From Escherichia phage vB_EcoM_LNA2, in the sequence record MZ311865.1: DNA of 64,000 bases, one strand, 5' to 3'. Positions within the stretch are counted from its first letter, which is position 1; each line of letters starts with the position of its first letter. Positions 3,547 through 24,776 of this stretch are shown one piece after another. The position numbers were made by a program, and so were the translations under genes. The notes below the pieces were generated by a model. The model was not told the origin of the DNA, searched no databases, and saw nothing but the letters and a program-made list of their open reading frames with translations.

Positions 3547-4016
3547 TTAGCCTTATATTCAAGAGTAGGACAGACTTTTTCTTTACGAGCTTTAATGTAT
3601 TCACCTATTAATGATTTCTTACGTTCAATAGGCTCAAGTCCATTTTTAATTCGTTCTTGGTTTTGTGCAATGAGCTCAATTTCTTTATAATATTTTCTGT
3701 CGTTATATTTGTCTAATAACCAAGATGGACCAATTACCGCCCCGACAGCAATAAGAACCATTACTGATATTGTTAAAATGCCTATACCAATTGAAGCAGG
3801 AACTAATGTCCATAAACTACTAAAGACAAAGAATTTAGTTAAAATTTCTTGGCCAATGATTGCGGCACCTGCTAAAGTTGCAAATCCAACAATTGAAACA
3901 GCCAATACCGGAATAAACGTTTTCCAAAAATAAGCACATAATGTTTTCGGACGATTCCATGTACTATTGAACGTGGCATAAATTTTAAAGTGCCAAGAGT
4001 TTTCATTGATAATCAT
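3543..4016 (-). CDS. small integral membrane protein (2-3 predicted TM helices, charged C-terminal tail)
   Basis: Hydrophobic stretches FIPVLAVSIVGFATLAGAAIIG, FFVFSSLWTLVPASIGIGILTI, SVMVLIAVGAVIG followed by a K/E/R-rich tail; translationally coupled to the NTase-fold gene. Confidence 0.6.
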   Translation of the reverse strand: MIINENSWHFKIYATFNSTWNRPKTLCAYFWKTFIPVLAVSIVGFATLAGAAIIGQEILTKFFVFSSLWTLVPASIGIGILTISVMVLIAVGAVIGPSWLLDKYNDRKYYKEIELIAQNQERIKNGLEPIERKKSLIGEYIKARKEKVCPTLEYKAK

Positions 4017-4737: not shown

Positions 4738-4872
4738 TTTACCATACTCGTTTCAATAAGATTCACTATGCCGTTTACCATGTTATAAGTAAACATCGGA
4801 TAATTGTATTGTACTACAACATAAGCGATAAGCAAAAGTTTCATTTTGTTCTCCGTTCGTTTTGATAGGACT

Positions 4873-4902
4873 ACTATAACATAGTCCTATCAAGTTGTAA
4901 AC
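4873..4902 (-). promoter_or_regulatory. T4-type early promoter with -10 embedded in a palindrome
   Basis: Minus strand GTTTAC, 18 bp, TATAGT; the -10 sits inside the inverted repeat ataggactaCTATAACATagtcctat. Confidence 0.6.
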
Positions 4903-15612: not shown

Positions 15613-15638
15613 AATATTCTCCTCAAGTTGATAGGACT

Positions 15639-15668
15639 ACTATAACATAGTCCTATAATTGTGTAAAC
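15639..15668 (-). promoter_or_regulatory. T4-type early promoter with palindrome
   Basis: GTTTAC, 18 bp, TATAGT inside the same ataggactactataacatagtcctat palindrome. Confidence 0.6.
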
Positions 15669-16917: not shown

Positions 16918-16933
16918 TTAATTTGATAGGACT

Positions 16934-16963
16934 ACTATAACATAGTCCTATCTTATTGTAAAC
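16934..16963 (-). promoter_or_regulatory. T4-type early promoter with palindrome
   Basis: GTTTAC, 18 bp, TATAGT inside the ataggactactataacatagtcctat palindrome. Confidence 0.6.
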
Positions 16964-21465: not shown

Positions 21466-21701
21466 GTTATTAAGCAGTTGACGCTACTCAATATTTTTAA
21501 AAGGCCATATCTCGACCATATCCGAACGTTCCGTCAAAAACGCTACTCGGCTTACGGCAAAGATATTTCCTCGAATCGATAATTCTGTGCGCCGTTTCTG
21601 CTGTGATGTAAGGGGGTATTAACAAATCGTAAAGATTTATTAAGACCAGTCCTTACTCAGGGAACATCAGTCCGACGTCTTGCCGGTAGCGACCCGGCTT
21701 C

Positions 21702-22046
21702 TTATTTTGGCATATCATCAATTTGCTCTCGACGCCGACGCCATAGATTAATCGCTTCATAAACACATTCAGCATTTGGTATATGGCGACAATAGTATAG
21801 TGATTCGCGTTTCTGGAACCGATGTTGTAATGGAATTTCGTTTAAAAGGTCTTTACGGTCAAAGTATTCAAAACTAGTTAACCCGGAACGGTTTTTAAGA
21901 AACTTCCAATGTCCGAATTCATTTTGAAAATAAACGTAATCAGCGTGTTGATATAACGAATTAATCAACCGGTCGGAAATAACTGTATCCTGTTCGTTAA
22001 AATAAAACGTTAAATCATGAACTACCAAATAAATATTGCCTTTCAT
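21702..22046 (-). CDS. hypothetical protein (114 aa) inside the tRNA region
   Basis: Track ORF 21702..22094 would overlap tRNA-Arg; the internal ATG at 22046 preceded by GAGGAAAA (MKGNIYLVVHDL...) is preferred. Confidence 0.45.
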   Translation of the reverse strand: MKGNIYLVVHDLTFYFNEQDTVISDRLINSLYQHADYVYFQNEFGHWKFLKNRSGLTSFEYFDRKDLLNEIPLQHRFQKRESLYYCRHIPNAECVYEAINLWRRRREQIDDMPK

Positions 22047-22064
22047 ATTTTCCTCACTTGAAGT

Positions 22065-22141
<77 letters not shown>

Positions 22142-22144
22142 GAT

Positions 22145-22219
22145 TGGTGACCCTGGCTGGTTTCGATCCAGCTACCTATCAGTTATGAGCTGACAGCTCT
22201 CCCATTGAGCTACAGGGCC
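22145..22219 (-). tRNA. tRNA with CAT anticodon (Met, or Ile2 if C34 is modified as in T4)
   Basis: Hand-folded cloverleaf: acceptor GGCCCTG/CAGGGTC, D-stem GCTC/GAGC, anticodon stem GTCAG/CTGAT with loop CTCATAA, T-stem GCTGG/CCAGC, encoded CCA; 3 nt from tRNA-Arg. Confidence 0.75.
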
Positions 22220-22281
22220 TTAATAACTTTCTATTATGAAAGGCACTTTAGAGCACCTTTGGTAATAGAGGGTATGAATTA

Positions 22282-22307
22282 ATAATAACACATAATTCTT
22301 AAAGCAA
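22282..22307 (-). promoter_or_regulatory. MotA-dependent middle promoter candidate upstream of the tRNA cluster
   Basis: Minus strand TTTGCTTTA (MotA box), 12-bp spacer, TATTAT -10; about 55 nt upstream of the first tRNA. Confidence 0.5.
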
Positions 22308-22814
22308 ATCAATCATTTTAACAGTCGGCAAAACAATTTCTTCTTCAATATAAGCGAATTCAACACGTTCAACTACACGCAAGAAATCGTAATCATAGTA
22401 TTCAGAAGCATAGCCAAGAATATCAATAAGTCCTTGAGATATCTCATCTCCGCTCTCAAAGAATAGGTCGAATACACGTGTTTCATCTTCTTCGGATTTG
22501 TCACCAAGGTCAACTTCGATACCAAAGACCTTTTTAATGAATTCTGGATAAAGCTGGTCTGAGAACAGTCCTTCAACCAAGTATTCATAGATTAAAAGCG
22601 AACAATCACTGAATGGTGTATTACCGCAATAACGTTCGGCTTTAGTGCTAGAATGACGGCTCTTAAATTTCTTCAAGAGATATTTAAACTGTTGGAGCTC
22701 ATGCTCTTCCACACCAAATAATGTTTTTGTTTTATAGTTGTCGCCGTCATTTTCCCAAGTAGTGACATCAATTACGTAACCTTTAGGAATTGTACTGCCT
22801 AAACAAATATTCAT
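22299..22814 (-). CDS. hypothetical acidic protein (171 aa)
   Basis: ORF track; lies between the tRNAs and ipI. Confidence 0.5.
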   Translation of the reverse strand: MNICLGSTIPKGYVIDVTTWENDGDNYKTKTLFGVEEHELQQFKYLLKKFKSRHSSTKAERYCGNTPFSDCSLLIYEYLVEGLFSDQLYPEFIKKVFGIEVDLGDKSEEDETRVFDLFFESGDEISQGLIDILGYASEYYDYDFLRVVERVEFAYIEEEIVLPTVKMIDLL

Positions 22815-22818
22815 TTAC

Positions 22819-23109
22819 TCACCGTACCATATTAATGTAATTATATTCAATGCAACATAATTTCAAAGGATTCTTGAAAATATCATATTCAAGAGGACCT
22901 TTTTCTGTTTCAATAAAGAAATCAAAGTTCACACTATTAAATTTGCGGTCTTCCCAAAGTAATTTAACCTGTGAAGATGAACGGTCGACGTAAACCTTTT
23001 CAACTTCAAAGTGGGTCAAAATACCATAGTAATCGACTAGTGCTTTAGCTGCAGCTCGGTCGCTTTCATATCCATTCTCAATGGATTTTACCTTAGCATA
23101 AAGAATCAT
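22819..23109 (-). CDS. hypothetical protein (96 aa)
   Basis: ORF track. Confidence 0.45.
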   Translation of the reverse strand: MILYAKVKSIENGYESDRAAAKALVDYYGILTHFEVEKVYVDRSSSQVKLLWEDRKFNSVNFDFFIETEKGPLEYDIFKNPLKLCCIEYNYINMVR

Positions 23110-23468
23110 GAATGTTCCACCATTTCAAAGGTATGAGCATCAACAATATGATACCAGTCAAAATTTTCTTCTGCGTTTTTATAAATTTCGCGAAGAACCT
23201 CAACAGTTTTTCCTGTAGCAACAAGGTCGTCAATACCGCCAAGAGGATAACAGTCGTAACCAGCAAACAGAAGGAAATTAATAGTTTCTGTAGGTTCTGG
23301 ATGCAGAACACCGTTATCGTCTACCACTTCAAAGAAAATGTAAGAAGGAGTACAAGTTTTAATCCAAGCCCAGGCTTGAGCTGCTGAATCAAATGGTCTG
23401 CGTATCAAACGACAATCAGGGTCTTTAGAAGGATTTGCTTCAAAATCCGCATATACGTGATATTTCAT
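23106..23468 (-). CDS. hypothetical protein (120 aa)
   Basis: Track ORF 23106..23486; ATG at 23468 preceded by AAGGTGA is preferred. Confidence 0.45.
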   Translation of the reverse strand: MKYHVYADFEANPSKDPDCRLIRRPFDSAAQAWAWIKTCTPSYIFFEVVDDNGVLHPEPTETINFLLFAGYDCYPLGGIDDLVATGKTVEVLREIYKNAEENFDWYHIVDAHTFEMVEHS

Positions 23469-23469
23469 T

Positions 23470-23676
23470 TTACTCACCTTTTGCAATTTTATCCATAACG
23501 ATAGCGATTAAGCCGATTAGAAATGCTACTACCAATGAGATAGAGTTTTCAGTTGTTGTCAGTAGTCCACAAATGAATCCTACAAACATCGAAAAACTAA
23601 AAGCCATTGAAGCAATTACTACAGCAACATTACGAATCAGTTCAGCGCGTTTCATTTTATTTCTCCATTTACTCAT
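23470..23676 (-). CDS. small membrane protein (68 aa)
   Basis: Hydrophobic helices (VAVVIASMAFSFSMFVGFICGLL, LVVAFLIGLIAIV); early promoter at 23693-23722. Confidence 0.5.
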   Translation of the reverse strand: MSKWRNKMKRAELIRNVAVVIASMAFSFSMFVGFICGLLTTTENSISLVVAFLIGLIAIVMDKIAKGE

Positions 23677-23692
23677 TTGTTTTGATAGGACT

Positions 23693-23722
23693 ACTATAAC
23701 ATAGTCCTATCAGTATGTAAAC
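23693..23722 (-). promoter_or_regulatory. T4-type early promoter with palindrome
   Basis: GTTTAC, 18 bp, TATAGT inside the ataggactactataacatagtcctat palindrome. Confidence 0.6.
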
Positions 23723-23725
23723 TAC

Positions 23726-24013
23726 TTACAGAAGAGTTTTTGCAATAATTTTAAGCTGAGCTACAGAAATATGCTTAGCTTTAAACAGTGCAGTCTCTTC
23801 AGCCGGAGAGATAACAATAGTAGCGCCATCTTTCTTAGCAGACCATCCATCCCCTAAGTAAACAGTACCTTTTACTTCTTCACCATCAACCAGACTAATC
23901 ATTGGTTTACCCTCACGTCCTTTATTTGTTTTAATAACTTCAGAAGTAAGGGATGCTTCAGTCAGAGTAGAAACGTTAGCAACAGGTGATATAAATTCTT
24001 TATAGGTTTTCAT
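23726..24013 (-). CDS. ipI: internal protein I-like (capsid-targeted, ejected protein; anti-restriction candidate)
   Basis: N-terminus MKTYKEFISPV capsid-targeting leader; 95 aa; positioned before 57B as T4 ipI; early promoter at 24048-24077. Confidence 0.65.
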   Translation of the reverse strand: MKTYKEFISPVANVSTLTEASLTSEVIKTNKGREGKPMISLVDGEEVKGTVYLGDGWSAKKDGATIVISPAEETALFKAKHISVAQLKIIAKTLL

Positions 24014-24047
24014 TTTATTTCCTTGAGGTCGTTTATTTGATAGGATG

Positions 24048-24077
24048 ATAGTAACACGCCATCATCCTTATGTAAAC
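24048..24077 (-). promoter_or_regulatory. T4-type early promoter (ipI) with a different palindrome
   Basis: GTTTAC, 18 bp, TACTAT; the -10 is flanked by the inverted repeat aggatgat...atcatcct. Confidence 0.6.
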
Positions 24078-24090
24078 TGTTTTGTGAAAA

Positions 24091-24776
<686 letters not shown>

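Follow-up and report, generated by a model that had tools for sequence, protein, structure and literature searches.

Three of the four genes that fill the interval between the tRNA genes and ipI in Escherichia phage vB_EcoM_LNA2 are the long-annotated T4 genes trna.4, trna.3 and trna.2 at their usual position. We read the interval as a conserved T-even trna.4-trna.3-trna.2 block with one optional gene, ORF171, which would together form an early, tRNA-linked operon of accessory proteins, and we give this reading a probability of about 0.6. The analysis covered a stretch of 64,000 nucleotides of record MZ311865.1 (the window), and the window phage is a Mosigvirus, an RB69-like T4-type phage. The preliminary description had listed four consecutive minus-strand ORFs of 171, 96, 120 and 68 aa, and these exist at 22299-22814, 22819-23109, 23106-23468 and 23470-23676, with a likely revision of the start of the 68-aa ORF. 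They are flanked by tRNA-Met/tRNA-Arg (22065-22219) and ipI (23726-24013). Purifying selection acts on all four (dN/dS 0.03-0.4 against relatives), which marks them as genes rather than chance ORFs. The trna.4-trna.3-trna.2 block itself is already known: its annotation in T4 and RB69 goes back two decades, and the RB69 gene names tRNA.2, tRNA.3 and tRNA.4 date from the original annotation of that genome.

BLASTP identified ORF96, ORF120 and ORF61 (the 68-aa ORF read from its likely start) as orthologues of T4 Trna.2, Trna.3 and Trna.4 over essentially their full length. The T4 order ipI, trna.4, trna.3, trna.2 and tRNA array on one strand is matched by the window, where the three genes have the order, strand and place between ipI and the tRNAs of their T4 counterparts (NP_049746-8). 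The T4 block also has the same early promoter upstream and the same middle promoter downstream, and no structural difference was found beyond the diverged and shorter Mosigvirus Trna.3. The order and position are shared by T4, slur07, RB69, 308Ecol101PP, dhabil (Dhakavirus) and S16 (Gelderlandvirus), the last with an extra small ORF and a shortened trna.3, and also by VR25 (Gaprivervirus), which is without trna.2. The three genes occur in essentially every Mosigvirus and Tequatrovirus: Mosigvirus-type trna.4 (at least 95% identity) was found in 148 records compared to 152 with Mosigvirus-type gp1, and Tequatrovirus-type trna.4 in 506 compared to 505 with Tequatrovirus-type gp1. The only length difference that was traced among close relatives falls between trna.4 and ipI, in 308Ecol101PP, and the remaining two-piece matches among close relatives have an insert of similar size. 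Sequence comparison thus establishes orthology, synteny and purifying selection for the block.

The gene nearest to ipI, trna.4 (23470-23655, minus strand), encodes a 61-aa protein that is 84% identical to T4 Trna.4 over 61 aa (E 8e-36, BLASTP); tblastn found matches in 778 phage records, and dN/dS against relatives is 0.09-0.24. Its product had been described as membrane-embedded and 68 aa long. It is indeed hydrophobic (GRAVY 1.24, two hydrophobic segments), but a length of 61 aa from 23655 is more likely than 68 aa from 23676. The start lies at 23655 in T4 Trna.4 and all annotated relatives, GGAG is found 7 nt upstream of it, and the upstream ATG in 308Ecol101PP is out of frame and runs into a stop. 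Trna.4 is predicted to form a two-helix hairpin, probably in the inner membrane, and the other three products would be small acidic cytoplasmic proteins.

The next gene, trna.3 (23106-23468, minus strand), encodes a 120-aa acidic soluble protein (pI 4.6) when read from its ATG; an in-frame TTG comes earlier, as the first possible start, and would give 126 aa. It is 38% identical to T4 Trna.3 (E 9e-26, BLASTP), with tblastn matches in 749 phage records, and is the fastest-diverging gene of the four. Compared with T4 Trna.3, Mosigvirus Trna.3 is 16 aa shorter, and it has diverged far more than its neighbours. Residues 79-99 of ORF120 resemble the PRPP loop of xanthine phosphoribosyltransferase (E 0.035), a likeness that we attribute to chance because it is not kept in Trna.3 of T4, slur07 or VR25. 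Precomputed data tag Trna.3 homologues with PF26894; our Pfam profile search gave no match of Trna.3 to this family and a literature search returned no mention of it. The 96-aa product of trna.2 (22819-23109, minus strand), whose start overlaps the trna.3 stop in ATGA, belongs to family phrog_2023 and is 80% identical to T4 Trna.2 (E 2e-52, BLASTP), with tblastn matches in 798 phage records. A TusC/DsrF match of ORF96 (E 0.017 in NCBIfam, 0.85 in PDB) was dropped because the scores are far below the cut-offs.

ORF171 (22299-22814, minus strand) is the sole gene of the four that varies in presence. It encodes a 171-aa acidic protein (pI 4.4) and corresponds to RB69ORF151c, a homologue of 516 nt at the identical position in RB69. 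Its residues 1-170 align with positions 1-164 of the 165 positions of the phrog_2290 profile (E 7.3e-69), which was matched by 105/105 aligned relatives as well; phrog_2290 is without a described function, Pfam family or solved structure. ORF171 varies as a clean indel of a single gene located between trna.2 and the middle promoter of the tRNAs: all Mosigviruses have it, as do ~10 of the 46 sampled Tequatrovirus-type junctions (about a fifth to a quarter), and it is lacking in T4, dhabil, S16 and Bas37. TGCTTTAA after T4 trna.2 was considered as a scar of ORF171 deletion and is better explained by the mapped tRNA promoter, whose MotA box it forms. The predicted model of ORF171 is a confident, compact single domain, for which a fold search found no matching fold in PDB, and no extra domain was recognisable in longer phrog_2290 proteins among the best 150 of 1,216 relatives. 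The family comprises at least 1,200 clusters spread over unrelated phages with an invariant W-E-N-D-G-D hairpin, and ORF171 carries an invariant E-x-D-x-D/Arg/Asn constellation on a beta-hairpin. This pattern on the predicted model makes a host-specific decoy less likely than either a small metal-dependent enzyme or a protein that binds some universally conserved target.

The best promoter-like site in the region is an early sigma-70 promoter at 23693-23721 on the minus strand (TTTACA-17-TATAGT; 10/12 matches plus TG), from which the four-gene operon would start. An exact 26-bp palindrome, ATAGGACTA...TAGTCCTAT (23685-23710), overlaps this promoter and has four copies in the window where none are expected; in 308Ecol101PP the promoter/palindrome unit also lies on both sides of the extra internal-protein gene. 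The unit agrees, with one mismatch in the -10, with the PeSL type described for T4/PST (TTTACW-N17-TAYWAT and an AGNA...TCNT stem; PMC4122927). Direct reading of the junctions showed a 1-nt gap between trna.4 and trna.3, the ATGA overlap of trna.3 and trna.2 and a 4-nt gap between trna.2 and ORF171, with visible Shine-Dalgarno sequences. No terminator-like site was found on the operon strand before the tRNAs, so the four-gene transcript would run into tRNA-Met and tRNA-Arg.

A second, MotA-dependent middle promoter for the tRNAs is predicted at 22282-22306 on the minus strand. Its TGCTTTA box (22306-22300) overlaps codons 170 and 171 and the stop of ORF171, and a 12-bp spacer separates it from the -10 TATTAT (22287-22282), which places the predicted +1 at 22275. 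The site, ATTTGCTTTA followed by 12 bp and TATTAT at 22309-22282, fits the MotA consensus (a/t)(a/t)(a/t)TGCTTtA located 12 +/- 1 bp upstream of a TAnnnT -10 (PMC2988021), and the window contains 9 matches to the middle-promoter pattern compared to 1.83 expected. In T4, the promoter PtRNAE (PtRNAsc1) has been mapped with a start at 72593 (PMC2988021), exactly 7 nt past the homologous TATTAT. The box, 12-bp spacer, -10 and start context are identical base for base to window positions 22306-22275, except that the box lies just past the trna.2 stop in T4 and inside the last codons of ORF171 in the window. Homology to the mapped T4 start is thus established by alignment, and activity in the window phage is predicted. 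The 5' leader of the tRNA precursor contains a hairpin (22229-22269, minus strand); the 86-nt stretch 22215-22300 that includes it has an MFE of -18.9 kcal/mol (z -2.8), and this sequence block is kept in T4, slur07, dhabil, S16 and VR25.

These elements suggest the following order of events, in which the four genes are probably co-transcribed in the window phage with read-through into the tRNAs. The early promoter/stem-loop (23721-23693) would fire directly upon infection and the four genes would be expressed as one early, translationally coupled operon, with ribosomes crossing the 1-nt gap, the ATGA overlap and the 4-nt gap, while the transcript would continue into tRNA-Met and tRNA-Arg. Later, MotA/AsiA-modified RNA polymerase would restart at the middle promoter. 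Since the MotA box is formed by the last two codons and the stop of ORF171, the tRNAs would also be made independently of the operon.

The flanks differ from what had been assumed. The preliminary description placed the four ORFs where T4 carries segB, and this was mistaken: segB, a GIY-YIG homing endonuclease gene of the same general region, lies within the T4 tRNA array between tRNA-Arg and tRNA-Ile (PMC2330249), and the T4 tRNA-to-ipI interval consists of trna.2, trna.3 and trna.4. The four-ORF interval of the window contains no segB homologue, and the four ORFs have no sequence relation to it. The flanking genes had been taken as conserved; relatives show close to the reverse, and the variability lies in the tRNA array and, on the side of ipI, in the internal-protein cassette. 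In the window, ARAGORN located tRNA-Met(CAT) at 22145-22219 and tRNA-Arg(TCT) at 22065-22141, both on the minus strand as downstream cargo of the transcription unit; Rfam matched these tRNAs at 59 and 71 bits and found nothing else. ipI and 57B/Acb1 do adjoin the interval, as had been stated. The ipI gene (internal protein I; 23726-24013, minus strand) has its own early promoter/stem-loop at ~24048-24076 and belongs to phrog_4363, and its product is 86% identical to T4 IPI. Relatives carry one to four differing internal-protein genes at its position, and the true cassette slot lies beyond trna.4, between 57B and the early promoter. Repoila et al. (1994; cited in PMC12373910) reportedly dealt with this T-even internal-protein cassette locus. 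The cassette with its PeSL repeats (Arbiol 2010, Comeau 2014) adjoins the operon upstream and shares its promoter/palindrome unit; unlike cassette genes, the four ORFs lack the leader MKTYxEFIxE and, except for ORF171, are not exchanged among relatives. Variability is thereby relocated to the internal-protein cassette and the tRNA array, with trna.4-trna.3-trna.2 as a fixed spacer between them. The finding originally flagged matters little, as it came down to a known gene block and a misplaced segB.

Two negative statements of the preliminary description were borne out by our searches. No GIY-YIG or HNH endonuclease domain was detected in the four ORFs with Pfam, NCBIfam or PADLOC (E <= 1); homing endonuclease genes in relatives are flagged by the same libraries or by annotation. 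The capsid-targeting leader MKTY(K/Q)EFI.E is absent from all four products, which begin with MNICLG, MILYAK, MKYHVY and MKRAEL, and present in ipI (MKTYKEFISP) and in the extra internal-protein gene of 308Ecol101PP (MKTYKEFIAE). Searching the four products against Pfam, NCBIfam, PADLOC and the sequences of PDB yielded nothing above noise, and no anti-defence family was matched in library and fold searches, in which the PADLOC models represent defence systems rather than inhibitors.

Transposon data bear on function. By HIDEN-SEQ, trna.2, trna.3 and trna.4 of T4 and their Bas37 orthologues are non-essential on laboratory hosts, with insertions at 23/25, 39/40 and 16/17 TA sites of T4 trna.2, trna.3 and trna.4, respectively, and the conditional phenotype of the three genes was not significant (adjusted p = 1) in the comparisons examined. 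The preliminary description had named conservation at this position in most relatives, combined with known housekeeping roles, as what would contradict it. For three genes the conservation is present, since trna.2-4 occupy the same position in ~750-800 records, and a housekeeping role is not, the genes being non-essential. We propose that the four products would be early accessory proteins that bind or modify host or defence components and take part in no core phage process. By analogy with their neighbours IPI and 57B/Acb1, they may have a counter-defence or host-modulating role. Between genera, trna.2 and trna.4 are strongly conserved (80-84%), which would be unusual for genes in an arms race and counts against counter-defence.

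The whole 1.4-kb interval had been proposed to be a variable cargo slot at the T4 segB place, into which accessory or anti-defence genes are swapped. The precise one-gene indel of ORF171 agrees with this, as do the absence of trna.2 from VR25, the altered gene content of S16 and the position of these non-essential genes next to ipI and 57B/Acb1. However, trna.4-trna.3-trna.2 is fixed in order and position from Mosigvirus to Gelderlandvirus in ~750-800 records, segB is elsewhere in T4, and the traced length difference of 308Ecol101PP falls between trna.4 and ipI. What survives is the presence or absence of ORF171; for the interval as a whole the proposal is largely refuted, and we regard it as very unlikely. 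Nor do we see much to recommend ORF171 as a selfish or recent mobile insert, a homing-type remnant beside the tRNA array with no phage function. Its gene-sized, clean indel with a fixed junction would suit such an element, and tRNA arrays are known targets of homing endonucleases (segB in T4, an HNH gene in JoYop and Bas37). Yet ORF171 has no endonuclease motif or family match, is under strong purifying selection (dN/dS 0.03-0.18), folds confidently into one compact domain, keeps invariant residues in at least 1,200 clusters across unrelated phages and is translationally coupled to trna.2, which makes an insert of this kind barely credible.

A service of these genes, chiefly ORF171, to the phage tRNAs, in maturation, modification, repair or protection from host anticodon nucleases, would account for their staying in a single transcription unit with the tRNA array. 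They are co-oriented and apparently co-transcribed with the tRNAs, and ORF171 homologues lie in or beside tRNA arrays in Tequatro-, Mosig-, Gapriver-, Karam- and Tulaneviruses, Klebsiella T4-likes and GAP32. By raw counts that have no background control, a tRNA lies within 5 kb in 28/60 IMG/VR loci, ~11/35 lineages that are not T4-like included, and in several of the latter the distance is below 400 bp (L034, L053, L060, L091). The invariant acidic and Arg residues of ORF171 may further point to catalysis. On the other hand, many phrog_2290 members have no tRNA within 5-6 kb, hyperplastic regions hold both small early genes and tRNAs anyway, T4, dhabil and S16 retain their tRNAs without ORF171, and no similarity to a known tRNA enzyme was found. 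We consider a tRNA-service role unlikely, and continue to favour the early operon of accessory proteins.

Any engineering or deletion at the end of ORF171 must keep the MotA box, as the stop region doubles as this element. Two leads emerge from the operon. The first is phrog_2290, a large family whose fold has no known match; its members share an invariant acidic hairpin and may be linked to tRNA arrays. The second is Trna.2: in a DRT1 pull-down (PMC13275509), it was one of two T4 proteins enriched and thus co-purified with DRT1, a result that the authors of that study did not follow up.

The window comes from a Mosigvirus, a genus of T4-type phages; over a 3-kb stretch around the four flagged ORFs it shares 96-97% identity with phages AV117, 308Ecol101PP, HX01 and JS09. 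Every gene of this stretch is carried on the minus strand. In transcription order, gp1, 57A and 57B (24091-24546) come first, followed by ipI (23726-24013), the four ORFs, tRNA-Met (22145-22219) and tRNA-Arg (22065-22141), all on that strand. The four ORFs are real genes; each is preceded by a Shine-Dalgarno sequence and has a full-length match to a PHROG family, and dN/dS, measured against relatives of varying distance, spans 0.03-0.40, much as for ipI and 57B. The preliminary description gave products of 171, 96, 120 and 68 aa. The first three sizes hold, and the last is more likely 61 aa from a start at 23655: T4 Trna.4 and every annotated relative begin there, a GGAG precedes it by 7 nt, and in 308Ecol101PP the ATG further upstream is in another reading frame. 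The last product had been described as membrane-embedded, and the 61-aa protein is strongly hydrophobic. As had also been described, a domain search of the four ORFs found no endonuclease domain, and the capsid-targeting leader MKTYxEFIxE is absent from all four.

The interval had been equated, wrongly, with the place where T4 carries segB. The T4 reference record puts segB between tRNA-Arg and tRNA-Ile, inside the tRNA array, and the SegB paper locates it within the T4 tRNA cluster (PMC2330249), whereas the array-to-ipI stretch of T4 holds trna.2, trna.3 and trna.4. ORF96 (22819-23109), ORF120 (23106-23468) and ORF61 (23470-23655) are orthologues of these genes, with 80%, 38% and 84% identity and in the same order, and the annotation of RB69, the type Mosigvirus, reads RB69ORF151c, tRNA.2, tRNA.3, tRNA.4, ipI. 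The trna.4-trna.3-trna.2 block was known and annotated before, which gives the finding a low rank; the earlier observation is partly confirmed.

The block is flanked by one or more internal-protein genes on one side and by the tRNAs on the other in T4 and slur07 (Tequatrovirus), RB69 and 308Ecol101PP (Mosigvirus), dhabil (Dhakavirus) and S16 (Gelderlandvirus); in VR25 (Gaprivervirus), trna.4 and trna.3 are followed directly by the ORF171 homologue. Among 50,697 phage records, tblastn found trna.2 in 798, trna.3 in 749 and trna.4 in 778. With records typed by gp1 as the denominator, Mosigvirus-type trna.4 occurs in 148 of 152 Mosigvirus-type records, and 506 records carry Tequatrovirus-type trna.4 compared with 505 of that type by gp1. 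On these counts, trna.2, trna.3 and trna.4 are fixed, not variable. The proposal of a variable cargo slot thus fails for these three genes; it stands for ORF171 (22299-22814), and the genes are indeed accessory and non-essential.

ORF171 is the sole variable gene among the four. It is absent from T4, dhabil, S16 and Bas37. In a spread sample of 46 Tequatrovirus-type trna.2/tRNA junctions, about 31 were T4-like, about 10 had an insert of about 510 bp and about 5 were otherwise different, in agreement with the counts of 127 records with ORF171 homologues at 80-90% identity and about 506 Tequatrovirus-type genomes. The junctions are precise. Where ORF171 is present, the gene ends in ...TTGCTTTAA, followed by GAATTAT(G/T)TGTTATTATTAA; where it is absent, (A/T)TGCTTTAA plus a spacer directly follows trna.2, the same as in genomes with the gene.

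The sequence conserved at this junction fits the consensus for a MotA box, (a/t)(a/t)(a/t)TGCTTtA, spaced 12 +/- 1 bp from a -10 element of the form TAnnnT (PMC2988021). The start of the mapped T4 middle promoter PtRNAE, coordinate 72593 (PMC2988021), falls exactly 7 nt past the TATTAT in the T4 copy of this motif, and by base-for-base homology to PtRNAE the predicted tRNA middle promoter of the window has its MotA box at 22306-22300 and its -10 at 22287-22282 and would start at 22275 (minus strand). The MotA/-10 pattern has 9 matches in the window against 1.8 expected. Codons 170 and 171 of ORF171 and its stop codon thus double as the predicted MotA box, a coding/regulatory overlap in which the box is kept with or without ORF171. 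The tRNA precursor has, in its predicted 5' leader, a hairpin (22229-22269, minus strand) that lies after the middle-promoter start and ahead of tRNA-Met and may act as a processing site or stabiliser. The folding energy of the 86-nt stretch around it is -18.9 kcal/mol (z -2.8), and T4, slur07, dhabil, S16 and VR25 all share the conserved sequence block.

Upstream of the four genes, a predicted early promoter, TTTACA-17-TATAGT, overlaps a 26-bp palindrome; the two occupy 23721-23685 (minus strand). The exact palindrome, ATAGGACTATGTTATAGTAGTCCTAT, has four copies in the window against 0 expected (4865-4890, 15631-15656, 16926-16951 and 23685-23710, all minus strand), embedded in T4-type early promoters. 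PeSL units are proposed mediators of cassette shuffling. The promoter/palindrome units fit this type, which is known from T4-type phages (PMC4122927), and variable loci probably lie at the other three copies as well. In transcription order, the first two genes are 1 nt apart, the next pair overlap by ATGA and the last two are 4 nt apart, and a scan of 21500-24700 found no terminator-like sites on the minus strand. A single early polycistronic transcript would cover the four genes and run into the tRNAs, and the middle promoter would supplement tRNA transcription later.

The flanking genes had been regarded as conserved, but in relatives the flanks vary on both sides of the block. The 57B-to-trna.4 interval holds one to four different internal-protein genes. 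The window has ipI alone, while 308Ecol101PP has an extra internal-protein gene with the leader MKTYKEFIAE between ipI and trna.4 (3619-3882 of retrieved locus L001), bracketed by two promoter-plus-palindrome copies, and RB69 also has an extra one (3284-3610 of L015). The ipI-to-trna.4 position is the genuine cassette slot. Polymorphic internal-protein loci were reportedly described by Repoila et al. in 1994, a study cited in PMC12373910, and the variation upstream of the block fits those loci. The HIDEN-SEQ preprint describes the ipI locus as variable amid highly conserved flanks. On the other side, the variable neighbour is the tRNA array, not the ORF block: the array has 2 tRNAs in the window (Met-CAT and Arg-TCT, 22065-22219), 8 in T4 and 10 in slur07, and homing endonucleases occur in it, segB in T4 and an HNH gene in place of tRNA-Gln in JoYop and Bas37. 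The HNH gene directly follows the tRNA leader in some Tequatroviruses, among them JoYop (2199-2807 of L096) and Bas37 (bas37_0256), a second endonuclease site of the array besides that of T4 segB. Relatives have an annotated 345-nt gene (about 21702-22046) of phrog_3355, a family of unknown function, right after the tRNAs, where T4 has rnaC and rnaD; at 21702-22094 the window has a mechanical ORF with a TTG start that overlaps tRNA-Arg, and Rfam finds no small RNA there.

The most interesting remainder is the family of ORF171, phrog_2290, together with a lead connecting Trna.2 to DRT1. ORF171 homologues occur in 565 phage records, and an exhaustive search yielded 1,216 clusters (50% identity), nearly all of them proteins with one domain and a length of 130-200 aa. 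The members come from Straboviridae, GAP32-like jumbo phages and unrelated large contigs. The sampled members all match phrog_2290 and none matches Pfam, and the longer relatives carry no informative fusion domains. The AlphaFold model of ORF171 is confident (pLDDT 92.7), with the invariant W-E-N-D-G-D at a beta-hairpin turn. In every T4-like lineage examined, the homologues lie in or beside tRNA arrays. A tRNA lies within 5 kb at 28/60 IMG/VR loci with a homologue, including roughly 11/35 non-T4-like lineages; on several of the unrelated, non-T4-like, large-phage contigs (L034, L053, L060, L091), distant homologues are 30-400 bp from tRNA genes. Many phrog_2290 loci have no nearby tRNA, and the link of the family to tRNAs is only suggestive.

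Within the block, Trna.3 (ORF120) diverges fastest, with 38-43% identity between Mosigvirus and Tequatro-, Gapriver- and Dhakaviruses compared with 80-86% for its neighbours trna.2, trna.4, ipI and 57B between the same genera. This pattern reflects either local accelerated divergence or single-gene allelic replacement. Trna.3 retains a C-terminal motif, and its model (pLDDT 77) has no fold match. A precomputed PF26894 tag is attached to close homologues but gives no hit in the local Pfam copy. By HIDEN-SEQ transposon data, T4 trna.2, trna.3 and trna.4 are non-essential (23/25, 39/40 and 16/17 TA sites hit), as are their Bas37 orthologues, and none of the comparisons examined there gave a significant conditional effect. 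Pull-down with the DRT1 defence protein enriched two phage proteins, one of them T4 Trna.2 (PMC13275509).
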